Made by a program: the position numbers and the translations under genes
The notes under the pieces: model-generated
Told to the model about the DNA's origin: nothing
Database searches by the model: none
The model's input: only the letters and a program-made list of their open reading frames with translations
Part shown: positions 2,777 through 55,261 of the stretch, one piece after another
How positions within the stretch are numbered: the first letter of the stretch is position 1
Layout: the number at the start of each line of letters is the position of its first letter
NCBI RefSeq assembly: GCF_030684315.1
Contig: NC_081362.1
Span: forward strand, 54,463,744 to 54,527,743
From: Stegostoma tigrinum
Lineage: Eukaryota
DNA: 64,000 bases
Direction of reading: 5' to 3'

Positions 2777-3349
2777 CAGAGATAATGGGAACTGCACATG
2801 CTGAAGAATCTGAGATAACAAGGTGTGGAGCTGGATGAACACAGCAGGCCAAGCAGCATCTCAGGAGCACAAAAGCTGATGTTTCGGGCCTAGACCCTTC
2901 ATCAGAAAAGTTGGTTCCATAGGCAGGTGCTGAGAAGGTGATGTGGCTGTGGTACCTGGTTTGCTTCAGGACATGGTCGAGCAGTTTCAAGGCCGAAAAG
3001 ATGACGAGAGTTGCAGTGGGAGAGGGATCCCCTGAGGTTGGTCCGGAGGGAGGAGGGTAACTTCTTCAGGTTAGGCATCCTGGAAGAGGCTTCGCAGTGA
3101 GGTTAAAATTGTGATCACAGATAATGGGAACTGCAGATGCTGGAGAATCTGAGGTAACAAAGTGTGGAGCTGGATGAACACAGCAGGCCAAGCAGCATCT
3201 TAGGAGCACAAAAACTGACGTTTCGGGCCTCGACCCTTCATCAGAAAAGGCCTTTTCTAATGTAGGGTCTAGGTGCGAAACGTCAGTTTTTGTGCTCCTA
3301 AGATGCTGCTTGGCCTGCTGTGTTGATCCACCTCCACACTTTGTTATCG
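2777..3349 (-). mobile_element. Internally deleted Penelope-like element: pLTR - 5' ORF remnant - pLTR, plus inverted pLTR arm
   Basis: Direct repeats at ~2777-2909 and ~3116-3250; inverted arm 3251-3349. TSD cttccatttgtttt (2763-2776) / ctttcatttgtttt (3350-3363), 1 mismatch. ORF remnant from ATG at 3078 (minus): MPNLKKLPSSLRTNLRGSLSHCNS../KLLDHVLKQTRYHSHITF/LSTCLWNQL, frameshifted. Confidence 0.8.
3217..3244 (-). ncRNA. Minimal hammerhead-ribozyme-like core (PLE type)
   Basis: Minus strand: CTGATGA-AGGGTCGAGGCCC-GAAACGTC. Conserved CUGAUGA and GAAA boxes, GGG/CCC stem II, palindromic ACGU stem III and GUC cleavage triplet. Stem I is only about 2 bp. Confidence 0.65.
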
Positions 3350-3651
3350 CTTTCATTTGTTTTGTCCCTTTTTCAGGATAGCCTAGTCTTTCCAGCCAGT
3401 TAAGCACTTGCCCTTTTTAATTGTAGGAAGTTGTGGCAGTAAATTTGCATAGTGCTCCAAACAACAGAAAAAAATAAGAAAGCAATCTGTTTGTAGTAGA
3501 TCTTCAGGGATAAGTATTAACCAGTTCACTTCTTTTGTTGTGAAAACTACCTTTCTTGCTGGTATATGGAGGATGATGGGCTGCATTGAAGTGGAATGGT
3601 GGATCCGCTTGGCATTGGCAGTCTGGGGCATGGAGCATTGGACATTGGGAC

Positions 3652-3965
3652 AGAATCATAGAATCCCTACAGTGCAGCAAGAGGTCATTTAGCCCATCAA
3701 ATCTGCACGGACTGTTTGAAGAGCATCCCATAAAGATGCAGCAACCCTAACCCTATCCCTATAATCCCACATGACCATGGCTCATTCACCCAACCTGCAT
3801 TTTTTAGGATTGAGGGAGGAAAGCAGGGCACCCAGCAGAAACCCACTCAGAACAGGGAGAGCATGTAAACTACACACAGGCAGTCACATAAGGCTGGAAT
3901 CTAACTCCGGTCCCTGGCGCTGTGAAGTAGTAGTGCTAACCATTGAGTCATTGTGCATGCTGCCC
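3652..3965 (-). mobile_element. HE1-type V-SINE (tRNA-derived)
   Basis: Reverse complement of the SINE at 7820; more diverged. Confidence 0.85.
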
Positions 3966-4114
3966 CAAAGTTTGGTGTGAGGGGCAATGAATTGGCATTG
4001 CTGAGTTGAGGGGCATAGATTGGCATGGGGGTGGAAGAGTAAGCTTTCATGACCTTTAAGCAATGTTGGGAGCTGGTCTCCTATGATGGAGAACAGAGAG
4101 AGATTCACTACTGC

Positions 4115-5040
4115 ATCTTACTAATGGTCATTAGGCCCTTCAGGCCATTGAGTCTGCTCTGCTGTTCAGTAAGATCATGGCTGGTTTGATCATCCTGAAC
4201 TCTGCTTTCCAGCCTTTATCCTAAACCCTTGATTCCTTTGAATATATTTAATGACTCAATAGTTTTCTACAGCTTGGAAAAAAAAATTCCACTCATTCAG
4301 CCTCCCTTGGAGAAAAAATGTCTTCTCATCTCTGACTGAAATAGGCGCGTTCTTATCCTGAGAGTTCTAGCCTCTCCCTCAATTGGGAACCACCTTTACA
4401 CATCTATCCTGCCATGCCCCTTACAAATTTTGCATGTTTCAAGAAAATTGCTTCTCATCTAAATTCCTACAAGTACAGGCCTAAGCTACTGATCCTCTCC
4501 TCGTAATACAGTCCCTTCATACCTAGTGAACCTTGTTTGGACAGCACTGTACTCCAACTGTGGTCTAACTTGCCTAGTTTTAGCAAAAAGTCCTTAATTT
4601 TATACTCCATTCCCTTTCAGATTCCATTTTTAAAACTCCAACATTGTTTTTTGCAATACAATACATTCCATTACACTTCCATAACCAGATCCAAAATAGC
4701 CTAGTCTCTGGTTGGATCCACGACATATTGTTCAAGGAGACTATTCTGAATGCTATCTGTTTTCTTCCTCAGTTTCCTCTGGCAATCTTATTATCCCAAT
4801 TTGCATTAAGTTTAAGGACATATTTTATTTTTATTTATTTGCCTTTTCTTTCCTGCACCCAAAAGGATTCTACAGCTTCCAATCTGAAATAATTTCTTCC
4901 TATCATATTTATTCCATCCCATACCAACAAAGCCACCCTACTATGCTTCCCTTTCTTTCCAGCCTTTCAAAAAAAATCACCTACTCCCAAATATATAGTT
5001 CCCAGCTTTGATCCCCTTGTGACAATTTCGCCAATCATCT
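4115..5040 (-). mobile_element. Decayed CR1 LINE fragments
   Basis: CR1 3' end (ggccattgagtctgctctgctgttcagtaagatcatggctg) followed by RT C-terminal and endonuclease-region remnants on the minus strand. Confidence 0.7.
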
Positions 5041-5050
5041 ATTTTTTTTT

Positions 5051-5371
5051 TAGAATTGGAATTAGAATCCCTACAGTGTGGAAACAGGCCCTTCGGCCCA
5101 ACAAGCCCACACCGAACCTCGGAGCATCCCACCCAGACCCATCCCTTTATAACCCACCTAATCTATACCTCCCTGAACACTATGGGCAATTTAGCATGGC
5201 CAGTCCACCTAACCTGCACATCTTTGGACTGTGGGAGGAAACCGGAGCACCCGGAGGAAACCCACGCAGACACAGGGAGAAAGTGCAAACTCCACACAGA
5301 CAGTCGCCCAAGGCTGTAACTGAACCTGGGTCCCTGGCGCTGTGAGGCAGCAGTGCTAACCACTGAGCCAT
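5051..5371 (-). mobile_element. HE1-type V-SINE
   Basis: Minus strand tggctcagtggttagcactgctgcctcacagcgccagggacccaggttc (A/B boxes), V-domain gtgggtttcctccgggtgctccggtttcctcccacagtccaaagatgtgc, and a CR1-like tail. Confidence 0.92.
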
Positions 5372-6479
5372 CTTATTCTCAATGTTCAGCGTGTTCAAGT
5401 AAAGAACCACTAATTTTGCCTTATACAATTTTGTCACCTTTTGACTCTCTGTCATTTTTCTATGGCCATGTACTCTGCCCCTTCCTGTCCTACTGTAGAA
5501 ATTGTTATCCAAATAATTGCCATGTAATGCTTCCATAATCATATTATATTCCTCGTTAACTGCATCATGGCTCGCAAAATGCACTGCAGATCCAAATGCT
5601 GTGTGGAAAGACAAAACTCCAAGGTTGCACATGCAATTTTGTGCACAAAAGTGAAAGGTGGGATTTTCCCAAGCCTATAGACTGTCTGGCCCCATGTATT
5701 GCTCTAAACTATGCTTATTCCCATTGAGGCCAGTATCTTTTCTATGGTGCAATACCCAGAATTATCTGTAGTACTGAAGGTGAAGTCTGACCAGGGTTTT
5801 GTATAGCTGAGGTATGTCTTTTATCCCAGATATAAAGTCCAGCATTCCATCGGCCTTTTGGATAATTCTCTTTATCAGCTGATGTCAATTTAATGATTTA
5901 TGTACTTTGACCCATGTCTCTTTGGCCGTCCGTTGTTTCTACCTTTTATACCATTATAAAGTTCAAAGGGTGACTCTGATTTTACTTAGGATTATATGCT
6001 GATGATGTGCCAATTCTTATAAAAGATATGATCTTTGTAATTAAAGATGATGCTAAATGAGTAGAGAGATAGCTAAGGACAGAAAGTAAAATGTGGATGT
6101 AATTAATATTTTTAGAACTATTGGCGTGTGGAAAGGTCTTGAAAGGATCACTGACATTTGTGTACAAATAAAATGCACACAGACACAAGAATTGATATCT
6201 TGGGGCCATAAAGAAAGAAAGAATACCAAAAATTACAGGCTGATGCAGGTTAGCAAATCGGGTGCTAGATGCAATTCAATGCTAGAAAAGCTGAAGTAGA
6301 TCATTTCCGGGAGATGGAGATGAAAAACAGTTGAAGGAAAAAGCCTTGAAATGTTAAGACTCTTAACTGTGATTACTTAGTTCTTGTGTGCTTACATCTC
6401 TGACATTACCTGTGTTTTTATATTCTTATAAAGAAATAGGAAAAGTCTTGAAGTTCTGAACTGAAATGACTGAAATGCT

Positions 6480-7230
6480 TCAACTAATTTGCAAACAACA
6501 AGCTTTGTCCATTCATTCATGGTAAAAACAGCAAAGAACAAAAAATGAGAGAAAAATTATGGTGTATGAGAAAGCTAACCAGAAATATAGCTAGGTAATG
6601 AAATTTTCTACAATTTTTTTAAGGAAACAAAAAGTTAATATTTGTCCTATAGAAGGCACACCTGGAGAACTAATAATGAAAACTAAGGAAATGGCTGGTG
6701 AATTGAAGAAATCTTGCATTGATCTGCACTATAGAGAATATAAATTACATCTCCGATGCAGCGATAAATTAGGAAATGGAAGGGAAGAAGAAACACAAAA
6801 TCACCTTGACTAAGGCCTGGCCTATGTGTGACTCCATATCCAGAGCAATATGGTTGACTCTTAAGTGCCCTCTGAAATGGCTGACCAAGTTACTTAGTTC
6901 GGGGTGATTAGGTGTTGGGCCTCAAAAAAAAGCCAGACTATTGTTACGTTGATTTTAACTTTCAAAAACTCCATTGATTTGGGAATGTTTCCATTAGATT
7001 AGAAGATAATGAACAGAGCTCCCTTACTCAAAAAGAGAGAGACAGTAAACAGGAAACTCTATGCCGGTTAGCTTAACTTCTGTCATGGGAAGATGTTAGC
7101 AAATATTATTAAACAGGTTGTTGCAGGACACTTAAGTAAGTTTGAGGTAATCAGGTGTAGAATCAAAATCATTTTGTGAATGGCAGATCCTGATTCACCA
7201 ATTTTTCGAAGTTCTTCGGGGAGATGACAT
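6480..7230 (+). mobile_element. Decayed CR1 ORF2 fragment with a nested SINE-tail insert (~6810-6920)
   Basis: GELIMKTKEMAGELK linker motif, then a degenerate RT N-terminal region (ccattagattagaagataatgaac..ccggttagcttaacttctgtc). Confidence 0.65.
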
Positions 7231-7610
7231 GTCAGTCATTCTGCATAGAAACAGACCTTTGGCCCACCATGTCTATGCTGACAAGTACCAAACTATACTC
7301 ATTCCCATTTTCCTATGTTTGCTTCATTTTAAAATGCCAGGGCATAGTGGGAATACTAACCCAGATGCTTCTTAAATGTTGCTAGAATACCTGCCTCTGT
7401 TGCCCTCTCAAGCAGCACGTTCCACATATCCACCACCCTCTGGGTGGAAGAAGATTTTTTTCAGATTTCCGCTAAACCACCTGCTCTTCACTTTTTAAAA
7501 ATTCTGTTCTATGATCTTAGCATATGTATCTATGGGGAAGAAATTTTCACAATCTACTCTATCAGTACCTGTCAATTTTGTGTACCTCAATCAGATCTCT
7601 TCTCTCTCCG

Positions 7611-7633
7611 CCCCCCCCCCCCCCCCCCCCCCC
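7611..7633. repeat. Poly-C homopolymer (23 nt)
   Basis: Seen directly. Confidence 0.95.
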
Positions 7634-7819
7634 GGCCAACAGTCTCCTCTGCTCCAAGGAAAACAAACCCAGCCTATACAGTCTGTCCTCATAATTGAGA
7701 CTTTTTGTCCCAGGTAACAGCCAAGGACCAGCCTTCGATGTGGGACATTGTCAAAGTCCTTACTGAAGTCCATTGTAAACCATATCAACTGCACTACCTT
7801 TATCAATACCTGCCTTATT

Positions 7820-8132
7820 GGGCAGCACAGTAGCTCAGTGGTTAGCACTGCAGCCTCAGCACCAGGGACCTGGGTTCAATTCCAGCCTCGAGTGACTGTC
7901 TGTGTGGAGTTTGCACATTCACCCCGTGTCTGCATGGGTTTCCTCCGGGTGCTCCGGTTTCCTCCCACAGTCCAAAGATGTGCAGGTTAGGTGGACTGGC
8001 CATGCTAAATTGCCCATAGTGTTCAGGGGTATGTGTATTACGGAGGATGGGTCTGGTTGGGATTCTTCAAGGGGTGGTGTGGACTTGTTGGGCCGAAGGG
8101 TCAGTTTCCACACTGTAGGGAATCTGATCTAA
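7820..8132 (+). mobile_element. HE1-type V-SINE, full length
   Basis: A-box tagctcagtgg at 7831, B-box ggttcaattcc at 7873, V-domain core, tail gggccgaagggtcagtttccacactgtaggg. Confidence 0.92.
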
Positions 8133-9379
8133 TACATTTAGTCTCCTTTTCAAAAAAATCAGTTAAAATAGTCAGACAGGATCTCCCTCTAACAAATCTG
8201 AGCTGACTGTCCTTGATCACTCCCTGTCTTTCCAAGTATTGATCAATCCTGTCCTTCACATTTTTTTCCAATAATTTCCCCACCACTGATGTTAGTCGAA
8301 CTGATTACCCGCCCTATCTCTGCTGCCTTTCTTAAGCAAAGGAACCACACTGGCTACCCTTCACTCATCTGGCACCTTGTCGGTGGTCAGTGAAGTATTA
8401 AATATATCTGCCATGGACCCAACAATCTTTACCCTTGCTGCCTGTAGCAACCTGGAATAGATCTCATCAGGCCCTGGGGATTTGTGTATCTATGTGCCTG
8501 CCAAAACAGCTAATACTTCCTCTTTATTAATCTTCGTTTGTTCCAGACCCCCTCGTTCCAACAGAAATTCCTGGCTACAATGTCTTTCTCCTCTGTGAAT
8601 AGAGGTGAGAAGTATTCGTTTAAAACCTCACCCATGTCCACTGGCTCCATGCTTGAATTTCCATAATTTATCCCACTCTTTCCCTGGTTCTCCTCTTAGT
8701 CCTAATATACTTGGGCTTTACCTTGGTCCCACTTGCCAAAGATATTTTGTTGCTCCCCTTTGCCCTTGTAAATTCTTTGTTAAGCAGCCCCCTACTTCAA
8801 AACTTTTTTGAATAGTTTTCCCTGCTGTATCTGACACATGCTTCCTACTTTTTCTTTATAAAACTGTCCATAACCCTTGACATCCAGTGTTCCCTGGACT
8901 TGCTGCAATTGCCCTTCACTCTTAAAGGTACATGCTGGTGCTGAATTAATTCTCACTGTCCTACTTATAAAGGACTCCCTCTTTCCAAATGTAGACTTGA
9001 TATAAGTAGCTGCTCCAAATTGGTCTTTGGCAGCCTTTGTCTAATGATATTGAAATCAACCTTCCTGCAATTGAAGCACTTAACTTCTATACTATCCTTG
9101 CCCTTTTCCATATTGACTTTGAAATTTAGGGTAATGGTCACAGTCTTCAAAATGCTCGCTTACTGAAACTTCAACCACTTGACCGGCTTCATTCCCTAGG
9201 ACTATGTCTAGCACTGCCTCATCTACTATCTGTATACTGGCATAGTCTCCCAGATGCAGCCTAAAAATTTGACCCCATCTTGTCCTTTTACACTAAGGTG
9301 ATCCCAATTAATGTTAGCAAGGTGGATGTTAAAAATCAAATTAAGAACTAAGTAAGTAAAACATACCATACAGGGAGCA

Positions 9380-12190
9380 ATTCAAGACAGAGGAGAAAAG
9401 AGAAATATTGTTGAAATCGGGGATAGTATATAGTTAGGGAAATTGACACTGTTCTCTGTGGCTAGATTCAAGAGTCCAAAAACAGTGTTGCCTGCCTGGT
9501 GACTGGGTTCAGGATATCTCATGTGGGCTGCAGAGGAGTTTGGAGCAGGAGGGGAAAGAACTGGTTGTCATGGTTCATGTGGTTCCAATTATCTAGGTGG
9601 AAAGAGGTTTTGCTGGGGGAATATGAATAGCTTGGTGTGAAATTTAAAAAAAATCAGGAAGGTAATAATGTCTAGACTACGACCTGAGCCACAAGCTAAA
9701 CGGCACAAAGTCAATAAGATTAAAGAGAGAAATGTCTGGCTCAAAGATGGGTGTGGGAGAAACCGGTTTGAATTCATGGGATTTTGGCACCAGTACTGGG
9801 GAAGGAGAGAGATGGTCTGATGGGATGGGCTCCACCTGAATTTTATGCTGGGACCAGAGTCTTGGCGAATCGTATAACTATGGTTATGGATAGTGCTTTC
9901 AACTAACATTGGGTGTGGTAGTTGTCAGTTGTATGGAAAATCAGAAAAATTAAAGCGGGGGAGAACTCAACAGAGGCTAATTAAAGTTTCCATAATAATA
10001 TGGAGTATGGAAAGGGTCAGGAGTCTAACTTAAGGTACAGCAGATGACTATGACAAGGCAGGAACAGTTAAGACAGGATTGAGGGTGCTGTACTTAATTT
10101 ACCTTATTTTGTGTACTGTGCATTTAACTTGAGTGCAGATTGAAATTGACAGGTATGATGATGTGGGTGTCATGACAAGTGTCTTCAAGGAGATCATGAC
10201 TGGGAATTAAATATCCAAGGATACGTACGCTGTCAAAAGGAGAGGCAGAGGAGGTTGGGTTGCCTTGTCGTAAGAAATGGAATTAAATAGATAGCAAGAA
10301 AAGTGATAGAATCTGTGTGAATAGAGTTGAGGAACTATAAAGGGAAAATGACCCTGCTGGGCATTGTGTAAGGCCCCCTGGCAGTAGTCAGAATGTGGGG
10401 AAGAAAATAAATCAGGAGATGGACAAGGCATGAAAAAAGGCACTGTTACAGTAATTGTGGAGTTCAAATTGCAAGTGGACTGAGAAAATCAAGTTGGTAC
10501 TAGATCTCAAGAAGAAATCTGTGGAAGGCCTAAGAGAAGGTTTCTTTTTGGAGCAATTTGTGGTAAAGGCTACACGGGAACATGCAATTTTGGATTTGAT
10601 GTGTAATGAGGGAAACTTGATTAGGAAGCTTAAAGAGAAGGAATCCTTCAGGAACAGAGACTATAATATGATAGAACACGCAGTTCGATTTGAGAAGGAG
10701 AAGCTGGAATCAGATGTAACAATATTACAATTGGGTGAAGGTATCCACAAAGATATGACAGGAGCTGGCCAGTACTTGAGGAGAGGGAATGTAGTAGGGA
10801 AAATGATACTTCAGAAACCCTTTTTCTTCAGAGACCTTTTTTTCTGAAGAAGGGTCCCGACCCAAAACATCAGCTTTCCTCCTCCTCTGATGCTGCCTGG
10901 CCTGCTGTGTTCCTCCCGCTCTACAGCTTGTTATCTCAGATTCCAGCATTGGCAGTTCCTACTGCCTCTGGCTGAGTCAGCATGGCTTTGTCAAGAGGCA
11001 GTTATGCCTCTCTAATCTGTTAGAATTCTTTGAAGTAATGAGCAATTTAAACCAAGGAGAACCAATGGATGTGGTGCATTTGGACTTCCAGAAGGCCTTT
11101 GATGTAGTGCCACAGGAGGCTGCGAAATAAAATAAGAGCCCATGGCGTGAAGGGCAAGTTAGTGACATGGATAGAGGATTGGTTGACTGGCAGAAGGCAC
11201 AGAATTGGGTTAAAGCAACCTTTTTCAGAATTGCAGCCCATGACTTGCGGAGTTCTGGAAGGGTCCACGTTGGATCACTAATAATCTACACAAAGGAGCT
11301 AAGGACATTATTGTTGCTGAATTTGCAGAGGGCACAGTGGAGAATAGGTAGGGTTGAGGAAGCAGGGTGGCTGCAGAAAGACTTGGACAGACAAAGAGAG
11401 TGGGCGAAAAGTGGTGGATGGAACACAATGTGGGAAAGTATGAGGTTATGCACTTTGTTATGAACAATAGAGGTGTAGACAGTTTTCTAAATGGGGAATG
11501 ATTTTGGAAACCTAGTTCTCAATTCTGAAGGTTAACATGCAGGTTCATTTGACAATTAGGAAGGCAAATGCAATGTTAGTATTCTTTTCCATAGGGCTGC
11601 AATTAAAGAGCAGGGATGTCTTTCTAAGGCTCTATAAGGCTCTGGTCAGACCACTTGTGAAATGATATAAGCACTTTCATGACCCTTGTGTAAAGAAGGA
11701 TATGCAGGTGTTGGAGGGGCGGCGGGGGGGCTCCTGATGAGATTTACAAGAATGATCCTGTTGATGAAGGGTGCTTCGTATGAGGAGCAGTTGTGGACTA
11801 GAAGGGTGAGGAGGATTTGATAGAAAGTGAAGAATACTGAGGGGCCTAGAGTGGACATTGAGAAGATGCTTCCACGAGTAGGAGAAAATAGGACCCAAGG
11901 GCGCAGCCTCAGAATAAAGGGACGACCCTTTAGAACTGAGATGAGGACGAAATTCCTCAGCTAGAGGGTGGTTAATCTGTGGAACTCATTGCTACAGAAG
12001 ACTATGGAGGGAAAATTATTGAGCATATTTAAGACAGAATATTAAGCTAAGCTCTTGATTAGTAAGGGGATGAAGTGTTATAGGGAGAAGGCATGAGAAG
12101 GGGCCTGCTTTACATATCAGCCATGGTTGACTTTTGGAGCAGGCTCGATGGGCTGAATGGCAAAATTCTGCTTCTATATCTTATGATCCA
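9380..12190 (+). mobile_element. Long decayed CR1 LINE with ORF1 esterase remnant, endonuclease, RT and 3' end
   Basis: From ~9410: IGDSIVREID..CCLPG..VVMVHVGSN (SGNH esterase of CR1 ORF1). Endonuclease FLEQFVVKATREHAILDL; RT VVHLDFQKAFDVVP; 3' tail ggagcaggctcgatgggctgaatggc. Internal deletion around 10800-10970. Confidence 0.85.
10843..10969 (+). mobile_element. Single Penelope pLTR arm (second subfamily) with hammerhead-like remnant
   Basis: CTGAAGA-AGGGTC-CC-GACCC-aAAACATC then ctgatgctgcctggcctgctgtgttcctcc..ttatctcagattccagcattggcagttcc. Homologous to the arms of the hairpin elements. Confidence 0.75.
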
Positions 12191-12930
12191 AGTCCCCTAC
12201 AGCTCTAATGCCATTTCTCTCACACCTTTGTGATCTGCCTTTCACTGACTGTTGGGGGGCGGGAGGTGGTTCCTGTAGTTTTATCCTACCAAGTTAATCA
12301 CTCCTTTTTTAAATTTCTGCTCTCTATCCAGATGGCTTCTTTTGAAAGCCCAATTAGGATATCCTCCCTCATTACTGCAGTGATAGTTTCTTTTATCAAT
12401 GATGCGATGCCATGGCCCACCCAACCCAACTCCACCTCCTATCGCGCCTGAAACTTCTGTACCCTGGAAAGTTGTTTTCATCCCATCCTCACCTCAGCCA
12501 TGTCTCAGTGATTGCTACAATATCACATTATCACGTACAGATCAATCTGTAAATTCATTTGGGTTACCAGTCAATCTCCTTGCATTAAAATACATACATA
12601 TAGCTTTCTTTTTCTTTCCCATGTATCTTATTCCGCCCATGTCTTCTCCACCTACTGGATTGTCCTGACATTCCTTAAGTATCTGTCTAAGCCTTTGCTC
12701 ATGGCTCATTCACTGTCATTTTAATGTTTTTATTTAGCCCCTGGTTGCTTATACTCCCTCAATAGAATCTGCTTAGTCCCACCAATATTGTTCGTACCTC
12801 CATTGACCATAACAATTAAATATTTCCCCTCCCACTCCAGGTTCCTCTCCAGCCTGAGAAGATGTCCTTAAGCCTGGCAATAGGCAAGAAACACAGCCTT
12901 TGGAGCTCATGCTGTTGGCTGCTAAGAACT
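12190..12930 (-). mobile_element. CR1 fragment (ORF1/endonuclease junction)
   Basis: Minus-strand ORF2 start (tgtatgtattttaatgcaaggagattgactggt..gatattgtagcaatcactgagacatggctg) with upstream ORF1-like sequence. Confidence 0.7.
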
Positions 12931-13159
12931 GTATCTGACTTAAACATTTCCATTAAGTAAACAAGGGTATTTCATTCAATTTTGTCAGATATTATGCCTA
13001 TATAATCATACTTTGGTTTATCAAGAGAAAAGGTTTGTGTGTGACAATGATGCAGATTACATGGACTTGTTCAGTTTAGAATATTTGGTCAGTGTGGACA
13101 AATTGGGCAGAAGGGTCTGTTTCCATGCTGTATAACTCTGACCCTAACCCCTCCTTTTC

Positions 13160-13502: not shown

Positions 13503-14632
13503 TTAGGGCACATGGTACTGGGGGCAAAATACTGAGTTGGATTGAAAATTGGCTGGCTGACAAAGCAAAGAGTAGTGATAAACGGGTCCCTTTCGGAATG
13601 GCAGGCGGTGACCAGTGGGGTACCACAAGGTTAGGTGCTGGGACCGCAGCTGTTTACGATATATATTAATGATATAGACGAGGGCATTAAAAGTAATATT
13701 AGCAAATTTGCTGATGACACAAAGTTGGGTGGCAGTGTGAAATGTGAGGAGGATGTTATGAGAATACAGGGTGACTTGGACAGGCTAGGTGAGTGGACGG
13801 GTGCTTGGCAGATGCAGTTTAGTGTGGATAAATGTGCGGTTATACACTTTGGCGGCAAGAACAGGAAGGCAGATTACGATCTCAATGAAGTCAAGTTAGG
13901 TAAAGGGGAAGTACAACGAGATCTAGGTGTTCTTGTACATCAGTCAATGAAAGCAAGCATGCAGGTAGAGCAGGCAGTGAAGAAAGCTAATAGCATGCTG
14001 GTCTTCATAACAAGAGGAATTGAGTATAGGAGCAAGCAGGTCCTTCTGCAGCTGTACAGGGCCCTGGTGAGACCGTACCTGGAGTACTGTGTGCAGGTTT
14101 GGTCTCCAAATTTGAGGAAGGACACTCTTGCTATTGAGGGAGTGCAGCGTAGGTTCACGAGGTCAATTCCCAGAATGGCGGGCCTATCATATATTGTAAG
14201 ATTGGAGCGACTGGGCTTGTATACACTTGAGTTTAGAAGAATGAGAGGGGATCTGATTGAGGCGTATAAGATTATTAAGGGATTGGACACTCTGGAGGCA
14301 GGAAGCATGTTTCCGCTGATGGGCAAGTCCAGAACCAGAGGACACAGTTTAAAAATAAGGGGTAGGCCATTTAGAACAGAACTGAGGAGAAACTTCTTCA
14401 CCCAGAGAGTGGTGGATATATGGAATGCTCTGCCCCAGAAGGCAGTGGAGGCCAACTCTCTGGATAGTTTCAAGAAAGAGATAGATAAAGCTCTTAAAGA
14501 TAGTGGAATCAAGGGTTATGGGGATAAGGCAGGAACAGGATACTGATTGTGGATGATCGGCCATGATCATAATGAATGGTGCTGGCTCGAAGGGCCGAAT
14601 GGCCTACCCCAGCACCTATTGTCTATTGTCTA
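13503..14632 (+). mobile_element. Young 5'-truncated CR1 LINE; RT C-terminal ORF 13635-14546 intact
   Basis: 303-aa open frame LGPQLFTIYINDID..KFADDTKLGG..LYRALVRPYLEYCVQVWSP..RNFFTQRVVDIWNALP. 3' UTR ends in a ctattgt repeat tail. Frameshift near 13565. Confidence 0.95.
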
Positions 14633-14634
14633 TA

Positions 14635-16330
14635 ACTCATCTATGCCAACCAAATATCCTAGATAAATCCAGTCCTATTTGCCAGTATTTGGCCCATTTC
14701 CCTGTAAACCCTTGCTATTCTTACACCCATACAGATGCCTTTTTAAAGGTTGAAATAGTACCAGTCTCCACTGCTTCTTCTGGCAGCTCATTCCATACAT
14801 GCACCACCTTCTGCAAGAATAAGTTCCCCCATAAGTCCCTTTTAAATCTTTCCCCTCTCACCATAAGCCTTTGCCCTCTCGCTTTTGACTCCCCACCCCA
14901 GGGAAAAGACCTTGTCTATTTACCCTATCCATTCTTCTCATAATTTTATAAACTTTTACAAAGTCACTCCTCAGCCTTTGACATTCCAAGGTAAATAGCC
15001 TAGCTTATTCAGCCTCTCCCTATAGCTTAAGCCCGCCAATCCTAGCAACATCCTTGTAAATCTTTTCTGAAACCTTTCAAGTTTCATAACATCCTTCCTA
15101 TAGCAGGGTGACCAGAAATGCACACAGTCTTCCAAAAGTGGCCTAAACTAATCTCCTGTACAGCCGCAGGATGACCTTCTAACTCCTGTGCTCAATGAAC
15201 CGACTAATAAATCAAGCATGTTAAATACCGCCTTCGCTACCGCATCTACCTGCAACTCCACTTCCAAGGAACTATGATGCTGCTCTCCAAGTTCTCTTTG
15301 TTCAGCAACATTCCCCGGGACCTTACTATTATGTGTTTAAGCCCTGCCCTGATTTGCCTTTCCAAAATGCACCACCTCACCTTTATCTAAATTAAACTCC
15401 ATCTGCCACCTATTGGCTCATTTGATCAAGATCTCGTTGTCATCTGAGTTAACCTTTTTCACTGTCCACTACAGCTCCAATTTTGGTGTCATCTGCAGAC
15501 ATATTAACCATGTTCACATCCAAATCACTTGTAAATAATGAAGAGCAGTGGACCCAGCACCAATCCTTGTGACACACCACTGGTCACAAGCCTCCAGTCT
15601 GAAAAGACACCCTCCACCACCACCCACTATCTTCCACCTTCAAGCCAGTTCTGTATCCAGATGGCTAGTTCTCCCTGTATTCCATGTGATCTAACTTTAC
15701 CAACCATCTGCCATGAGGAACCTTGTCGATCGTCTTACCGAAGTCCATTTAGATCATGTCCACTGCCCTGTGCACATCAGTCCTCAGTTACTACTTTAAA
15801 AAATTGTCATGTTAGTGAGGCATGACTTCCCATGCACGTAGCCCTATTGACTACTCCTAATTAGCCCTTGTCTTTCCAAATACATGTAAATCCTGTCCCT
15901 CAGCACTCTCTCCCACAGCTTGTGCACCACCAATGTCAAGCTCACTGATCTGTAGCTCTCTGGCTTTTCCTTACCACCTTTCTTAAATAATAGCACTATC
16001 CGGCACCTCATCTGTGACTATTGATGATACAAAGATCTTAGCAAGGGGCCCAGCGATCATTTCTCTAGCTTCCCATAGTGTTCTAGGGTACAGCTGGTCA
16101 AGTCCTGGGGATTTAACCACCTTTATGTTTTAAGACATCCTGCACCACCATTTTCTAATATGGACATTTTTCAAGATATTGCCATCTATTTCTCCACGTT
16201 CTACATCTTCCATAACCTCCACAGTAAACAAATGTGAAATACTGATTTGGTATCTTCCCCCATCTCCTGCGGTTCCCCACATGGGCGGCCCTGCTGATCT
16301 TTAAGGGGCTCTGTTCTCTCCTAGTTACCT
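14635..16330 (-). mobile_element. CR1 LINE, 5'-truncated
   Basis: Minus-strand RT (gtctgcagatgacaccaaaattgg = SADDTKI; ggtgctgggtccactgc) running to the 3' end near 14635. Confidence 0.88.
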
Positions 16331-16339
16331 TTTTTTGTT

Positions 16340-17392
16340 GACGGAATTCTGAGAGAGAAGATCTACATGCATTTGGAGAGACAAGGACTGATTAGGGACA
16401 GTCACTGAGTTTTGTTCAGACTGAAGGCCTGTGACCAGCAGTGTGCCACGAGGATCAGTGCTGGATCTGCTGTTCGTCATTTATATAAACGATTTGGATG
16501 TGAATATAGGAGGCATGGTTAGTAAGTTTGCAGATGAAATCATAATTCCTGACATAGTAAATAGTGAAGAAGGTTATCTAAGAATACAATGGGATCATTA
16601 AGAAACTGGACTAGTGGGCTGAGGAATGGCAAATGGAGTTTAATTCAGATAGACAAGACTTGCACAATTGACGGTAGGGTCCTGGGGTGTGTTGTCAAGG
16701 AGAGCGACAAAAGTGTGCAGGTTGCATAGTTCCTTAAAACTGGCATAACGGATAGATAATGTGCTAAAGAAGGCATTTGATGCACTTGCCTTCAGTCAGA
16801 GCACTGAATACAGGAGTTAGGACATAATGTAACGACTGTACAAGAGATTGGTAAGGCCATGTTTGGAGCACTGGTACAATTCTGGTTGCCCTACTGTAGG
16901 AAGGGTATTATTAAATTGGATAGCTTGCAAAAAACTCTTACAAGGATGATATGAGAAGGTTTGAGTTATAATGAGAGGCTGGGTAGGCTGCGACTTTTAT
17001 CCCTGGAGAGTAGGAGGCTAAGTGATGACCTTTATAGAGGTTTATGAAATCATAAGGGGATAGATAAGATGAATAGCCAATGTCTTTTTCTCAGGGTAGG
17101 GGAGTCCAAAACTAGAGGACATAGGTTTAAGGGTGAGAGGGGAAAGACTTAAAAGGGACCCAAGGGGCAACCTTTTCATACTGAGGATAGTGCATAAAAG
17201 GAACAAGTTGCAGACGAAATGTTAAATACAGGAATAGTTACAACATTGAAAAGACATTTGGACAAGTACATGGATTGGAAACGTTTAGAGGGATAGAGGC
17301 CAAATGCAAGCAAATGGGACTAGTTCACTTTAGGAAACCTGGTTGGCATGGATGAGTTGGGCCTAAGGGTCTGTTTCGCTGCAGTATGACTG
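16340..17392 (+). mobile_element. CR1 LINE, 5'-truncated, similar to 14635-16330
   Basis: gtgtgccacgaggatcagtgctgg..ataaacgatttggatg..aagtttgcagatga; tail gggcctaagggtctgtttcgctgcagtatgac. Confidence 0.88.
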
Positions 17393-17409
17393 ATTTAAAT
17401 AGGCCTGAA

Positions 17410-18125
17410 TGGTGAGAAGATGTAAAGAGCCATCAGGATGACTTAGACAAGTTGAGGGAGTGGGGAAAATGTGTAGCAAATGCAGAGTAACGTGGAAAAA
17501 TGTGAAGTTTCTCACTTCAGTAGGAAAAACAGAATAGTAGTATTATTTAAATATTGGAATTTTCACCGTGAGCATTGAAAGCAAGCATGAAGGTGCAACA
17601 GGCAGTTAAGGCCTGTGGCATTTTGGCCTTTATAGCAAAAGAGTTTAAATTCAGGAGCAAGAGGACTCTTTGCAGCTGTACTTTGCCTCAGTGAGATGAT
17701 ACTTGGAGTATTGTGTACTGTTTTTTGGTCTCTTTAACAAAGCAATTAAATGCATACCATAGAGTAGATGTAGCGAAGGTTCGCCAGACTGATTACTGGG
17801 ATGTGATAATGGGAACTGCAGATGCTGGAGAATCCAAGATAATAAAGTGTGAAGCTAGATGAACACAGCAGGCCAAGCAGCATTTCAGGAGCACAAAAGC
17901 TGACGTTTCGGGCCTAGATCCTTCACCAGAGAGGGCCCTCTCTGGTGAAGGGTCTAGGCCCGAAACGTTAGCTTTTGTGCTCCTGAGATGCTGCTTGGCC
18001 TGCTGTGTTCATCCAGCTTCACACTTTATTATCTTTGATTACTGGGAAGGCTGGTTTGCTGTATGAAGAGAATTTGGGTCAACTGGGCCTGTATTCACTG
18101 GAGTTTAGAAGAATGAGGGGAGGAC
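17410..18125 (+). mobile_element. Decayed CR1 RT fragment hosting a hairpin element
   Basis: LLYEENLGQLGLYSLEFRRMRG continues after the insertion. Confidence 0.8.
17802..18035 (-). mobile_element. Penelope-derived hairpin element (inverted pLTR arms)
   Basis: Perfect centre cttcaccagagaggg|ccctctctggtgaag (axis 17935/17936). TSD tgattactggga at 17790-17801 and 18036-18047. Confidence 0.88.
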
Positions 18126-18464
18126 ATTTTTCATATAAAGTATTAGATTTAGTCCAGCTCTATTACATTGCCATTCAATGTATTCTTGAAGGTAAACATG
18201 AAACCTACTAAATGTATTTTTCAAGTAAGGCTAATCAATGTAGAATTTCAAAACTCTTGGTGACATAGATTTACAACATGTTTATTCCTTTTCCAATGGA
18301 TGAACATCTCCAGTGTGTCACTAGTTTTGTGAAGGGAGAGATAATGTCACCAATTTCTTTTGTTCTTCCTTCTGTTGATTGGGAAAGCCAAACTACGAGA
18401 GTGTAAGATTCTTAAGTGTGACTGGTTTTAAAGTAATCGCCCTGGGAAGCTCTATTCCTGAGAG

Positions 18465-18662
18465 TAAAGATAGGAATTACTGGAAATATTCAGCATATCT
18501 GATGATATCTGACAGTATCTATAAGAGAGATGATGTTGTTCTGATAAAAGGTTGTTGATCTGAATGTTAAATGTTTTTCTCTCCACAGATACTGCCAAAT
18601 CTATTTCCAGCATTTTCAGTTTTCATTTCATAACTCCAGTATTTACAGTATTTTGCTTTTGT
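18465..18662 (+). mobile_element. Older Penelope-derived hairpin element (third family), decayed
   Basis: Left attactggaaatattcagc..tctgacagtatctataagagaga versus right tctctccacagatactgcca..tttccagcattttc. Central ctgataa..gaatgttaa hammerhead-like remnant; extra tail on the right. Homologous to 36983-37095. Confidence 0.6.
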
Positions 18663-19234
18663 GCTTTTAGAAATCTCCTTTTGAACCTTTAATTCTTTGG
18701 AACCAAATGATCTGAGAATTGGAAGGGTTAAATAGCAAATGAATGTGAAATTGAAGCAAGAGTAATAGTCAATATCCATCTGAAGAGAGTAATTATTGTC
18801 TTGAGTTTACTTGCACTTTGAAAATCATCCTAATTTAAAATATGTTAAATGCTTTTCTGTTCCAGGTCAGAAAAGTTCACTGAGAGACTGCCTGTACCTA
18901 TGTTTGTAAAGGGACGGAATTAATGTAGTTTTTCAAATCTCTAATCTCTCCATCTTCCTACCTTTTGTGATTATCTGGTGTTTACATGAACATAACTGAT
19001 TATGCATTTCTGATTAAACTGTTGCTTATTGCAGTTAAAACTGACGTAAATAGTTGACTCAAATAATCCTCAAAAAGCTTCACCTGTGGATAATTTATAA
19101 AGCACAACATTCCAAAATGAGATCACAATTTTAGATATTTGCTGTTGTATTTTCCCTCCCTGGGGATTTGTCAAATATTTTCGTTGATCTAAATGTTCCC
19201 CACAGTTGAAGTTAGAAATGTTAAAGCATTATTC

Positions 19235-19578
19235 TTTTATGGATGTTGGCATCATTGGAGAGTCCAGCATTTATTGCCCATTCCTAATTTTTGAATAGTT
19301 AAGAGTCAATAACACTGCTGTCATATGTAGGCTAGATTAGGACAGGATGACAGGTTTCCTTCCCTAAAGGGCATCAGTGAACCAGACAGGGTTTTTATTT
19401 TTATAGTCATCAGTGATTGCTTCATGGTCACTATTACTGAATCTAGTTTTTGGTTCCAGATTTTATTATTTGAAATTAAATTCCACCAAATGCTGTGATA
19501 GGGAACAAGTTCAAATCCTGAGTGTCAGCCTGCACTTCTGTTTTTCTAGTCCTGTGACATTAGAGTATGCCACCATTT
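19235..19578 (-). mobile_element. tRNA-derived SINE sharing its tail with the second LINE family
   Basis: Reverse complement of 19765-20230; tail ccagcatttattgccc also ends the LINE at 41170-42195. Confidence 0.7.
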
Positions 19579-19764
19579 GGTTAGATAATGAGCATTTTCT
19601 GGAGATCTTTTCAGGTTCTGAATCTGCTTGTCAGGGTCACAACATGAACACTGATTTGTGGACAGGTGATCAAAATTAGAAATACTTACTGTAACTTCAT
19701 TGCTTGTTAAGTCCTATGACCCATCATCAGTTTTCATTTTCACATAGCTGTGTTACAAATTATT

Positions 19765-20235
19765 AGGTGCAGTAGGATTATGATTATACTACTGGATGAA
19801 TAATCCAGTGGTTTCATCTAGTGATCAGGAGACATGAATTCAAATCCCATGCTGGAATTTAATTTGGTGCGTTAAATTAAAACAATTGTCATGAGAAATA
19901 CTCATACCAGGACAAACAGCCATGAAACTACAGAGCTGTCATTTTTTAGAAATAAGTATTTGGTTAAAAAAAAGTTCCAGAATAATAATCTGATTTAATG
20001 GTGACAATGTAACCTGTTGATTCTCATAAAAACCTACCTGCTTCACTAATGTCCTTTTAGAGAAGGAAGTCAGTTATCCTTATCTGATCCGACCTGACCT
20101 GACCTGACCTGACCTGACCTGACCTACATGTGACTCCAGATGTGTGGCAAATTAGTTGACTCTTAACTGCGTTCTGGACAATTGGGGATAGACAGAAATT
20201 CTCTAGTCAGTGACATTGATGTCCCAGGAATTAAT
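19765..20235 (+). mobile_element. Same SINE family, with an internal microsatellite
   Basis: B-box-like gaattcaaatccc; cttcactaatgtcctttta..acatgtgactccaga..gttgactcttaactgc. Confidence 0.7.
20091..20125 (+). repeat. (GACCT)7 pentanucleotide microsatellite
   Basis: Seven perfect units seen directly. Confidence 0.95.
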
Positions 20236-20671
20236 TTTTAAAGATCTTTATAATTAGAAACTCCTATGAACATAGAATTCTATGTGCAAAGCCATCCGTA
20301 GCAGAAACAGTTTATAATAGTGAGACCAAGCATTTTCTGAAAAAAAGTAAGCTTTAGTCAATATGAGAGTTTATTTGGTCTTTAACAGAAAACAGTACAA
20401 TCAGCAAAGTGGTTTTTTCCATGTTATTGTCCAAGATTTGATATGCTTTTTCCTCTGTTTACCTCCTACTTTTGCAGACTAAAGCAATCAACTTGAGAAC
20501 AGTGGCCTTTGAAACATATCACCTTGTCTTTAAAGGCAGGTCATTGTTCTCGTAAAGTTATGTCTGTCAATTTTTGATTTTTCATCATTTACTCTCCTCA
20601 CTGACTGAGCCAAAAACACACAGATCAAGAGAACTCTGAATGCACTTGAGAAGCTGTTCTCCTCTGTCCTG

Positions 20672-20762
20672 TGCTTTTCTGCGCCTCTGATGCTGCCTGG
20701 CCTGTTGTGTCCCTCCAGCTCCACACCGTGTTATCTCTGACTTCAGTATCGGCAGTTCTTCC
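20672..20762 (+). mobile_element. Partial Penelope pLTR arm (10843-type)
   Basis: cctctgatgctgcctggcctgttgtgtccctccagctccacaccgtgttatctctgacttcagtatcggcagttc. Confidence 0.7.
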
Positions 20763-21414
20763 TAAACTATCTCTGATAGTGAACCAGGTTTCTTTTAAAC
20801 AACAGATCATAACTTTGTGCTTGTCTTCTTTTGCCTAGTAACACAAGAGATATAAATATAGGTGTTTCTGTCCATTTTTATAGCTGGGGTTTTCCTGGAA
20901 CAGATCACTAACCTGTCACTGGAGACTATATCTTTCGTCACACACTCTACAGGCTTGGCTGACCAAGAGACTGTCCTGTTCTCGTGACCTACATATGAGA
21001 TTTGTAGGTTGATAACCAGGAAACTTGTTACTGTTACTTGGTCTGGCCAATATGTGACTCTGGCATATGTGGTTGTCTTTTAACCACCCTCTGAAGTGGC
21101 TTCACAGTCCTGTCAGTTGTATCCAAACTCCTAATTTTCTCAGGGCAACTCAGTATAGGCAATTAATGTAAGTTTTACCAGATATATCACCCTTCAGAAA
21201 ATGACTTAGTGAAAAAGAGACTTTTGGTGCTGAAAGTATTTAACATGATCTTAAAACCAAACAACTAGGCAACTTGTTCGTAATATCCTACCTGCACTGC
21301 CTTCAGCCTAGAATAAAGATTGTCTGGTTTTTACACTCCCTAGCCAGTGGATTTGAAGGCAAGAGGCAAAGAGCAAAGAATAATGCAGTTAGTGGCTCAT
21401 AAAATATACATACA

Positions 21415-22200
21415 GGCAGAGAATTAGACTGTTTGGCCCATTGAGTGAGCTCTACCATTCATTTGTGCCTGATACATTTCTCAACTTCATTCTCCTGCCT
21501 TCTCTCCATCGCCTTTTGATTCCTTTACTATCAAGAACCTATCTATCACTGTCTTAAACACACTCAATAACTTGGCTTCCACAGCCTTCTATGGCAAAAG
21601 TTCCACAGATTCACCATGCTCTTATCTTGACATGAATCGCCCAACTAGGCAAGCAAAACACCATGCAGGACTCTTGATCCTGCCTATAAATGATGCTATC
21701 TAAAGCTATAAACACCAAATCCCCTGACCACTATTGTGTTTCTTTTTGCTCTCGATGTTTGGTTGGTCAGTTTTCCCATCTTTCCTACAGTCCTCTTGCT
21801 CATCCACACAGGCAACAAGTATCTCATAGCTGCTGGACAAGCTGAGGCTATTCCAATGCTAAATTCAGGATCTCTCCACCTGCCTTACTTATAAAATGGC
21901 CTGACTGTTGCTTACCCATCTGACCTGTCCTCCCCACTGCTCCCTCATTACTTAAGTGTCTGGAGTCAAGTGTAGACCAGGATAGTACATTTTGTTTCCA
22001 ATTCCAGTAATATCAGGTGATCAATCCACCAGTGGGCCAGTTGAAGCTGCAAGTTAACCAGCAATGGGAAAGTCTTCTGCCAAATGGCTAAGCCAACAGA
22101 TTTTCCTTCCTTGATGGCAGATGAAATGCTCCCTTCCCTTAATGGGATCCCTGAACCGCAGTGGAGCAGACATTCTCCTGATCTACTTTTCCACATCCAC
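21415..22200 (-). mobile_element. CR1 3'-end fragment plus ORF1-region fragment
   Basis: CR1 tail (ttggcccattgagtgagctctaccattc..cttccacagccttctatggc), then esterase-region-like sequence. Confidence 0.55.
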
Positions 22201-22597
22201 CTTGTTAGGCAGGGGTACAGCGACTACAGTGTTACATGAAATCAAAGCCCATGTTTTTGAATGGGCTGTAATGATGAGGGGAAGTGCAAGTGTAGGACTG
22301 AGTTGCTCTTACAGAGAAGTGGCATGGGCACAATGTCAAATGGCACTTCCCGTGCTGTAACCATTCTATGAATTTTAAAGAAGGTGTTAATTGTAAGAGA
22401 TTATGAACAAGTTGACACTCTATATACACAATTGAATTTCACCAAATGACAGCCGTTTGACAGAACTGTGACTATTTTTGGTCAGAACAAATTATCCACA
22501 GTGTACATGCATCTTTCCCCCCTTAGTAATTATATCGAGGACCACATATGTACAGGAAAGAAAGTGCTTATTTTTTTTTTTAATCTGTTTTGTGTAG

Positions 22598-22724
22598 TGG
22601 AAAAACAAAGAGGCCTCCAGTGGGTTATAGATATTACCATCGCATATCACAAAGCAAAGCCAATAGACATTCAGACTTGGATAATTGGCTACAGAGAACC
22701 AACAGTCACACATGTACACTACAG
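22598..22724 (+). CDS. LPGAT1: LPGAT1 (lysophosphatidylglycerol acyltransferase 1) internal coding exon, third from last, 127 bp
   Basis: Polypyrimidine tract then tgtgtAG acceptor ending at 22597; donor AG|GTAAGT after 22724. Translates (x)EKQRGLQWVIDITIAYHKAKPIDIQTWIIGYREPTVTHVHYR, matching recalled vertebrate LPGAT1 KGLQWIIDTTIAYPKAEPIDIQTWILGYRKPTVTHVHYR. Phase 1 in, phase 2 out. Confidence 0.96.
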
Positions 22725-22929
22725 GTAAGTCATGTTGTTTCTGTTAAATCTTTAACTGAATACATGTACTCTCTTTTACCAGTGGCCAGTTGAGAAACTG
22801 AACTGATTTACATTGGGATTATGTACTTAGTGGAGTACAAGAGGGACTGATTTTGTTTTGATTGCATTCCCTTGTCACTGTAAATTATTGCCTTCTCTCC
22901 CCTACTAATTCTTCTTCTTTGGACCAAAC

Positions 22930-24130
22930 CTGTCACTAAGATTGAGAGACAAAGTAAAGGGAACTATACCAAAGTGTACATGGCGTTTGTAATAAGGTAG
23001 ATTATTTAAAGGCAAAGTAGATGAAATTGGGTGTGATCTAATCACCATTATTGATAACATGCCTGCAGTGTGACCAAGGAATATTTGACAATTAGAAAAT
23101 ACAGGCATAAAGGAAGAGCAGGTAGTGACAAGCTAATGATTAAGAATAGGATCAAAATGTTAGAGAGGAAAGATCTCCAATCGAAAGAACAAAATGCGGA
23201 ACCTGTTACAATGGAGCTAAGGGGCAGCAAACACTGGTAGGAGTTATTTATAGGCCATCAAATAGTTGCGTCAGTATGGGTCATGGTTTTAGTCAGGAGA
23301 TTAGAGAAACATGTGGCACAAGTAATACGGGTATCATGGGTGAGTTCAGTCTGTGTATAGATTGGATAAACCTAATGAGCAGGTATGATAGAGATAATGG
23401 GAACTGCAGATGCTGGAGAATCCAAGACAACAAAATGTGAGGCTGGATGAACACAGCAGGCCAAGCAGCATCTCAGGAGCACAAAAGCTGACGTTTCGGG
23501 CCTAGACCCTTCATCCTCGGATGAAGGGTCTAGGCCCGAAACGTCAGCTTTTGTGCTCCTGAGATGCTGCTTGGCCTGCTGTGTTCATCCAGCCTCACAT
23601 TTTGTTGTCTTGAGCAGGTATGATGTTGTGGATGACTTTCTAGAGTGTAGGGATTGTTTGTAGAGCAGTATACGGAGAAAAATTCCCGTGTGCAAGCTAT
23701 TTTAGATCTAGTACTAAGAAATGTAAAAGGCCTAATTAATAATTTTGTTGCAAACGAACCTTTATAGAAAATGAAATCATACAGTGCAGAAGAGGCCCTT
23801 CAGCCCATCAAGTCTACATTGACATGTGAGAAAGACCTGACCTTTAACCTAATCCTATTTACCTACACTTGGCCTGTAGCCTTGAATTGCCAAGGGGATA
23901 AATGAGCAAAATATGATATAGAATTTTACATTAGAACAAAGAAAATTGTGAATGTATGAGGAGCAAATTGATTGAAATAGATTGGATAAATACATTAAAA
24001 ATATGACAGTGCATGGGCAATGATTTTTTTTAAAAGAATGAGTGCATAGTTTAGAGCAATTCTATGTTCCTTTAGGGCACAAAAACCCAAAAAAGCAGTC
24101 AGCTGTGGCTAACAAGGGAAATTTAGGATT
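22930..24130 (+). mobile_element. CR1 endonuclease-region fragment starting ~200 bp after the LPGAT1 exon
   Basis: tgtgatctaatcaccattattgataacatg..ggagttatttataggcc..atcatgggtgagttc..gctattttagatctagtac. Interrupted at 23390 and ~23765. Confidence 0.75.
23390..23610 (-). mobile_element. Penelope-derived hairpin element
   Basis: Arms of ~92 bp that are perfectly complementary by eye around a 2-nt loop (23517-23518). Perfect TSD tgagcaggtatgat at 23376-23389 and 23611-23624. Confidence 0.92.
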
Positions 24131-55110: not shown

Positions 55111-55261
55111 TTAAGATTTATTATGAGCATCCTTAATGAAATTCCACTGGATATAATCTTAGGACTGTTTCTCAATAATAAGATTGACGTAACCCAAAAC
55201 AATTAAATTCTTGTGGAAAAATGACAGTGTAGGGCAGAAATTGTCAGGACAACTTGCGGAT

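Follow-up and report, generated by a model that had tools for sequence, protein, structure and literature searches.

Mirrored variants in the arms of Penelope-like hairpins of Stegostoma tigrinum and the template from which both arms were probably copied

The question raised by a 64,000-nucleotide stretch of the Stegostoma tigrinum genome (NCBI RefSeq assembly GCF_030684315.1, contig NC_081362.1, positions 54,463,744 to 54,527,743; the whole stretch is referred to as the window) is how the two arms of its short hairpins come to carry the same sequence changes. Four such hairpins are present, alongside single copies of the same family, with arms of 94–105 nt that are 92–100% complementary. Each lies within a single direct repeat of 12–15 bp, and one arm, which bears a tail, is ∼33 nt longer than the other. 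The hairpins are almost certainly 5'-truncated, head-to-head insertions of a Penelope-like retrotransposon, and the arms of most loci were very probably copied at insertion from one sense template. Positions are counted back from the end of the longer, tail-bearing arm (−1) on the strand of the reading frame.

The element was identified in a genome sample of 1.264 Mb from 11 contigs, comprising neighbouring as well as distant DNA. In this sample, the hairpin arms continue into a frame with a DKG motif, a reverse transcriptase (RT), a C-x4-C-x2-C linker, and a GIY-YIG domain. An 844-aa frame (L036:6499–9033) is contiguous with an arm and is 5'-truncated, with the DKG motif recognized by eye; no full-length copy of the element was found in the sampled DNA. 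Telling against the assignment, the Pfam matches of this frame (RVT_1, E = 8e-4; GIY-YIG, E = 0.003) were both under the curated cut-offs. Altogether, 75 head-to-head pairs were counted, with arms from ∼40 nt to >2 kb, and these hold 143 of the 272 copies that reach the 3' end. Target-site duplications (TSDs), mostly of 14–15 bp, flank 50 of 63 young pairs and none of 63 controls, and in 46 of 63 loci the tail-less arm ends between −31 and −37. Genome-wide, exact central patterns matched 5,610–6,412 loci, and rough extrapolation from 71 pairs in 1.2 Mb gives ∼190,000 inverted pairs. The linker agrees with the CX2-5CxxC definition, a signature by which the element would be of the Neptune (or Nematis) type. 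A miniature inverted-repeat transposable element (MITE) or other DNA transposon was ruled out by the unequal ends, the variable junctions, and the RT open reading frame (ORF). The family itself has probably been catalogued already, and the layout of the hairpins (an inverted truncated copy, one tail, a hammerhead-like motif near the centre, and a flanking TSD) is known; an inverted, 5'-truncated copy and a tail of 30–40 nt have been described for Penelope-like elements (PMC8557442, PMC3846280).

Mirrored variants and the template of the arms

An earlier reading of the window (the original prediction) held that copy-specific mutations are mirrored in both arms of each hairpin. The quoted motifs are indeed present in both arms (paired positions 3214/3287, 3201/3300, 17926/17945, 23428/23607, and 23431/23604). 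Their description as copy-specific holds for the bases at −96, −123, and −37, which are rare, but not for about half of the set (−83, −50, −44, and −40), which are subfamily markers. Among other arms, −96 C>T was found in 4 of 210 and −123 A>G in none of 169; −37 A>G was found in 9 of 206 arms, with both arms of element 3 counted. The −83 base of ttaggagc, on the other hand, is shared by ∼43 of 220 other young arms, the −50 and −44 bases of 'aataaagtgtgaagct' by ∼99 of 216 and ∼104 of 212, and −40 G by 88 of 212. The third arm of element 1 lacks the two variants mirrored in the adjoining hairpin (Table 1). No mirrored rare variant was found in the fourth hairpin (31023), and the claim that mirroring extends to each hairpin was an overstatement.

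Genome-wide, −123 A>G was found in both arms at 9 loci, in one arm at 100, and in neither at 6,412, where 0.53 loci with both would be expected (P = 6e-9). At these nine loci, further mirrored changes outside the markers were A>G on the sense strand in 19 of 19 cases, compared with 1 of 22 for single-arm changes. A restriction of mirroring to A>G was considered and rejected: −122 T>C was mirrored as strongly (both arms at 21 loci, one arm at 111, 0.89 expected with both), near the centre and on several subfamily backgrounds, and a second source, either private changes of the source copy or RT errors, therefore exists. Marker haplotypes differed between the arms of one locus in 37 of 386 cases (9.6%), compared with 37.5% after shuffling.

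Mirroring is real but minor, and the arms diverge freely after insertion. Across 57 canonical pairs (13,364 columns; five tail–tail pairs and one tail-less pair were left out), 264 rare variants were confined to a single arm and 33 were mirrored. In the short region of young pairs, 144 single-arm and 12 mirrored variants compare with 156 and 1.8 in matched controls, and old pairs carried 97 single-arm variants compared with 95 in controls. Element 1 of the window fell below the identity cut in the short-region counts and was retained in the haplotype-shuffle and canonical-pair counts. Because single-arm variants dominate, strong ongoing conversion between arms is not indicated. The pairing of arms by locus in a tree, which the original prediction anticipated, would mostly fail: a short young arm had its partner as sole nearest neighbour in 7 of 114 cases (24 ties), an old arm in 2 of 44, and a long arm in 14 of 26.

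ADAR enzymes convert A to I in double-stranded RNA, and I is read as G. Clusters of such changes were collected with a triple A>G motif, which fixed three sites in one arm only and left the partner arm unconstrained. This census returned 69 arms at 60 loci, representing 48 independent insertions. All 48 were read, and 26 were informative, having a head-to-head partner that overlaps a changed site (excluded were 12 duplicate loci, 18 partnerless loci, and 4 whose overlap included no edited site). Both arms carried the same sense-strand edit set at 19 of the 26; over 1382 columns, 76 A>G were common to the arms, 6 were found in one arm, and 1 other change was mirrored. These 19 loci comprise 14 distinct sets, and a TSD was found at 18. 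When both arms share sense-strand edits, their synthesis must have followed the editing, with one sense RNA or the cDNA of that RNA as the template. Together with the low haplotype mismatch and the one TSD around both arms, the identical edit sets bear out the view, already put forward in the original prediction, that the arms usually derive from one template at insertion.

Opposite edits, where one arm has A>G and its partner T>C, amount to A>G along a single genomic strand; they were found at 6 of the 26 loci. At five of these, T>C had affected 77 of 134 paired T, compared with 4 of 54 T in the tail (P = 4e-11), a confinement to paired T that a double-strand-specific deaminase would produce. 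The one other informative locus, L218, has an arm with five changes and an unchanged partner, and both reach −123 inside one 14-bp TSD. Matches to a T>C motif numbered 20 and fell in 19 loci; 14 of them had an A>G partner, 3 were joined to unedited arms, 2 lay in one 2.9-kb palindrome, and 1 stood alone. No simple hairpin with sense T>C in both arms was seen at these 19 loci, nor at the 11 loci of another (first) T>C motif, all matches to which were old, divergent chance copies. Patterns for doubly edited centres were found at only 1 and 2 loci, which is too few.

The opposite-edit loci are copies of hairpin RNA, and master hairpins exist as a minority. Two of them, L236:1144–1804 and L245:1145–1804, are 660-bp copies of one hairpin with its flanks, edited differently and ending in a short tandem tail, which we take to resemble the end of a CR1-type long interspersed nuclear element (LINE); this looks like passive carriage by another retroelement. 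As the two share flanks, at least some opposite-edit loci were passively carried with an inherited TSD, and an argument that treated the TSDs of such loci as fresh was dropped. Among edited loci, the share of hairpin RNA is inflated by construction, and the opposite-edit share is not transferable to all hairpins.

The strand-specific A>G clusters likely represent ADAR editing of the template RNA. By eye, the neighbouring bases at −112 (UAG) and −98 (CAG) fit the ADAR preference, and those at −82 (GAG) do not. The rare variants of the hairpins at 17802 and 23390 are probably RNA edits too, because they are A>G at sites changed in the edit clusters; the C>T of the hairpin at 3116 is not of this kind and fits a source-copy change or RT error. 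A common template likely explains why both arms show the variants of one sense RNA, probable A-to-I edits included. Penelope RNA has been found to be heavily edited in a lizard (PMC5625713).

Several individual loci were also recorded. One edited insertion is present in 11 copies with identical changes, mostly on small contigs, having been amplified inside a larger repeat (L171, L223–L227, and L229–L233). At L239, L235, and L243, the neighbour of an unedited sense arm is a piece dense in T>C changes (43 of them in L239), which suggests a jump onto antisense RNA. A junction insert at L198:1515–1535 carries two A>G between unedited arms, as if a third template had been briefly copied, and at L165:1531–1552 a short second arm, edited just as the long arm is, stops at the predicted ribozyme cut. 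A palindrome of ∼2.9 kb spans L246:1114 to L247:1880 (G000:C15, ∼2814287–2817157); its arms are 99.9% alike. This palindrome has taken up ∼1 kb of DNA from outside the element and carries an inverted piece whose 18 T>C changes are identical in both arms; its tail and tail-less ends are flanked by a TSD.

Insertion mechanism and rival explanations

In the proposed scheme, the enzyme would nick both target strands ∼14–15 bp apart. On one RNA, priming would start at the tail site (−1) from one target end and at a second site (∼−34) from the opposite end. Both cDNAs would stop at the RNA 5' end (hot spots at ∼−127 to −133 and a predicted ribozyme cut at −98) or stall, and their 3' ends would be joined through short microhomology or templated inserts into a head-to-head palindrome. 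The second arm could have the RNA as its template or, in part, the first cDNA; minority routes would use two different RNAs per insertion or recopy an existing hairpin RNA. Priming each target end at one of two initiation sites would give the observed geometry directly, and double priming of this kind is moderately probable. For Poseidon of the green anole, cutting and extension of both target strands have been observed in vitro, with two initiation sites bounding the tail (PMC11167929). The clustering of tail-less ends near −34 matches these sites, and double priming is further supported by the longer tail-less arms, the insertions with arms from two templates, and the overlaps and templated inserts at junctions, all given below.

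Pure snap-back, in which a target-primed cDNA folds on itself to template a copy that the endonuclease trims at ∼−34, with asymmetric deletion later reshaping the centre, is a possible though rather unlikely alternative. It would give identical edit sets, microhomology at junctions (overlap of at least 2 nt in 22 of 41, with templated inserts also seen), the L246/L247 palindrome, arms such as those of L103:6920, which agree at inner markers and differ at outer ones, and the correlated 5' ends of the arms, which lie within 10 nt at 28 of 63 loci (9.5 on permutation). However, the tail-less arm is longer by >10 nt at 22 of the 63 (>50 nt at 12; the tail arm is longer at 13), and a tail-primed first strand cannot yield a longer tail-less arm without further deletion. 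Nor does it readily accommodate the edited and unedited arms of L218, a commonest centre that has no loop, or the several arms that end at the −98 cut while the partner extends further. Arms from two templates lie inside one TSD at L218, L050, L103:6920, and L071:5874; a chimeric-template reading of L182 was rejected, as it proved to be two insertions. The cDNA snap-back of the original prediction is therefore possible but strained, and priming from both target ends is favoured over it with some confidence, without being proven.

Whole transcription and recopying of existing hairpins as fixed masters would explain the opposite edits (at 6 of 26 informative A>G loci, and in 14 of the 20 matches to the T>C motif), the differently edited copies at L236 and L245, the centres common to several loci, and a −1391/−2840 junction common to two. 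Sense-strand A>G in both arms, as at 19 of 26 loci, cannot arise in this way, which contradicts it as a general route; junction pairs are mostly unique in the unbiased sample, and the edited loci over-represent hairpin RNAs. Recopying is thus an improbable origin for hairpins at large. Equally, there is a slim chance that later gene conversion or hairpin repair between arms created the mirrored variants, the other mechanism first proposed. The 33 mirrored non-edit variants do rise weakly with arm divergence (1.5, 2.3, 3.6, and 2.2 per kb), and −122 T>C is mirrored near the centre on several backgrounds, but single-arm variants equal the controls in young and old pairs alike. Mirrored variants are no closer to the centre (0.49 vs 0.51) and have no GC bias in the long-arm data, where a bias at first hinted at by the short region disappeared, and conversion would need to copy whole edit sets while sparing everything else. 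Conversion as the main cause is not upheld. Self-priming on an antisense RNA template, a hypothesis set out in PMC3846280, accounts there for the head-to-head geometry and junction palindromes, and antisense-edited pieces do get reverse-transcribed, three of them joined to unedited arms. It predicts sense T>C in both arms, which was seen at 0 of 19 and 0 of 11 loci, compared with A>G in both arms at 19 of 26, and is most improbable. The same sense-strand edits in both arms thus disfavour both antisense self-priming and later conversion.

Several points weigh against a sense RNA, edited by ADAR and primed from both target ends, as the source of the arms. Fold-back of a cDNA would account for identical edits just as well, and two RNAs from a genomic copy that was edited beforehand could have served as templates for the two arms. 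Later deletion in a palindrome could produce an uneven centre and uneven arms. At L246/L247, an unedited arm joined to an edited inverted piece is duplicated in both arms, which fits DNA copying. A tendency for mirrored variants to lie further in than discordant ones fell short of significance (P = 0.10). The ADAR origin is read from DNA only; ADAR disfavours a 5' G, and the often-changed site −82 has one. The overall sample has no excess of A>G (13.0 vs 14.4 per 1000 for T>C), and the edited loci are a small, selected class (69 arms vs roughly 190,000 inverted pairs).

With these points in view, the fuller scheme, in which Penelope-like elements form inverted ends through palindromic twin priming, is offered tentatively and may not hold in all its parts. 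A dimer would use two sites, 33 nt apart on a single sense RNA, to prime from both target ends, and this RNA would often begin at the ribozyme cut or, slightly further upstream, at a pyrimidine-rich start. Fossil ADAR edits would then serve as single-molecule barcodes, by which one-RNA, two-RNA, and recopied-hairpin insertions could be counted from an assembly, and the resulting hairpins would be double-stranded substrates for the editing of the next generation.

Junctions and features of the window

The differing centres of the hairpins had been taken to speak for independent fold-back events and against a master hairpin. This does not follow, as the centres copy element bases just upstream of the ribozyme core, where two subfamilies differ, and recopied hairpin RNAs exist; the 'cc-tc-gg' centre is an asymmetric junction with a substitution. 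Identical centres at many loci, named beforehand as a sign of a master palindrome, were found in that one zero-loop centre is common to 11 of the first 50 loci listed (hand count). It occurs at different target sites and therefore reflects an end-point hot spot. Its end point is the last C of a pyrimidine run, presumably resembling a TCT initiator (a candidate only). A peak of 5' ends at −127 (28 arms) is inflated by an upstream mismatch to the reference copy.

Another peak of 5' ends coincides to the nucleotide with the predicted ribozyme cut (10 of 279 arms at 9 loci, two with a common junction; background 0.94 per position, corrected P = 3e-6), suggesting ribozyme cleavage in the germ line. 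A palindromic AGCT at the predicted cut could contribute to the peak, most of whose junctions are uneven. The hammerhead-like core motif and stem II were recognized by inspection; the monomer fold gave z = 0.21, and an Rfam search of window positions 1–32000 gave no hammerhead match, only two chance microRNA matches. A minimal hammerhead motif has been reported in Penelope-like elements (PMC4209133). Two unlinked 4.2-kb inverted pairs (L036:6149 to L037:339 and L004:974–5117) have nearly the same junction (∼−1391/−2840), with the tail on opposite arms.

Partial tandem structure of the pseudo-long terminal repeat (pLTR) was seen at window positions 2778–3250 and in an array at L074. The latter (L074:112–2759) is a very young insertion of five inverted tandem units of 429 bp (pLTR end plus body start), with its junction at the predicted ribozyme cut.

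Table 1. Hairpin-family features in the window
Feature	Positions	Strand	Remarks
Left TSD, element 1	2763–2776	+	14 bp, 1 mismatch vs 3350–3363
Tandem third pLTR 3' unit with tail	2778–2909	−	Without both variants mirrored in element 1 hairpin
Fragment, start of element body (partial-tandem structure)	2910–3115	−	Follows tail in other copies, including L074 array
Element 1, tail-bearing arm	3116–3250	−	−96 C>T (3214), subfamily −83 G>A (3201)
Element 1, tail-less arm	3251–3349	+	Both variants repeated at 3287, 3300
Right TSD, element 1	3350–3363	+	
Left TSD, element 2	17790–17801	+	12 bp, repeated at 18036–18047
Element 2, tail-bearing arm	17802–17935	−	−123 A>G at 17926, likely RNA edit
Element 2, tail-less arm	17936–18035	+	−123 A>G at 17945, within hammerhead-like core
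Left TSD, element 3	23376–23389	+	14 bp, repeated at 23611–23624
Element 3, tail-bearing arm	23390–23515	−	−37 and −40 A>G (23428, 23431)
Element 3, tail-less arm	23516–23610	+	−37 and −40 A>G again (23607, 23604)
Hammerhead-like motif, element 3	23518–23552		Predicted cut 23545/23546; by inspection against PMC4209133
Left TSD, element 4	31008–31022	+	15 bp, repeated at 31256–31270
Element 4 hairpin	31023–31255		Centre aaaaag-ggt-cttttt; only subfamily markers common to arms
Single tail-bearing copy of hairpin family	55259–55381	+	Haplotype at −50, −44 as in element 2

Older copies of the hairpin family, ∼77% identical to young copies, lie at 10843–10959 and 20673–20758 of the window. A 303-aa RT-like frame of another LINE, which we take from its motifs to be CR1-like, and three weak inverted pairs of other repeats account for 13635–14543, 14369–14847, 15537–16481, and 39094–39887. 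Elsewhere in the sample, L017:9494 to L019:9208 is a G/C-skewed low-complexity repeat of ∼20 kb with very long stop-free frames on both strands.

Comparison with known systems

In the twin priming of L1, both target ends prime on one RNA and a 5' inversion results, as in the scheme proposed here; the two cDNAs of L1 copy different parts of the RNA, whereas in the present family they copy the same part, giving a palindrome. MITEs and palindromic DNA transposons are likewise short, abundant inverted repeats with TSDs. The present family differs from MITEs in its unequal ends, its variable centres, and its arms of 40 nt to >2 kb that run into an RT ORF.

Poseidon of the green anole shares with it two initiation sites bounding the tail, the cutting and extension of both strands, and a predicted dimer, and belongs to a different clade, without the linker (PMC11167929). 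In that account no RNA reads were found at the ribozyme cut, and cleavage was not needed in vitro, whereas genomic 5' ends of the present family peak at this site; these ends suggest a germ-line cleavage that escaped RNA-seq of the anole. Inverted copies are not explained in the parts of PMC11167929 consulted.

Endonuclease-containing (EN+) Neptune and Nematis elements have the same order of RT and C-terminal GIY-YIG, the CX2-5CxxC linker, and partial tandems, as well as an adjacent inverted 5'-truncated copy, a tail of 30–40 nt at one end, and a TSD; they also have a hammerhead motif in the pLTR, of which the present family has a putative counterpart (PMC8557442, PMC3846280). Rotifer examples of Penelope-like elements have TSDs of 8–10 bp, compared with 14–15 bp here, where the ∼100-nt hairpins also reach a very high copy number. 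ADAR hyper-editing of inverted repeats, lizard Penelope RNA included, gives the same A>G clusters in double-stranded repeat RNA (PMC5625713), whereas those of the present family have become fixed in the genome and recur in mirrored form in the two arms.

The kind of element is known; the use of strand-specific A>G clusters in hairpin copies as a template marker is new. No paper joining Penelope, ADAR, and hammerhead, or dealing with Penelope palindromes in sharks, was found in a literature search outside which most subscription papers, Repbase, and Dfam lay. The formation of tandem and inverted Penelope-like structures has been called undefined (PMC8557442), and the choice between sense and antisense template was left open (PMC3846280). 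As a marker at the level of the molecule, mirrored edit clusters answer the strand question for the present family, in favour of the sense strand, and the question of one RNA or two becomes countable in any assembly rich in such elements. In this family, both the template strand and the template molecule can be read from the edit clusters, a feature unreported in the passages of PMC8557442 and PMC3846280 that bear on these structures.

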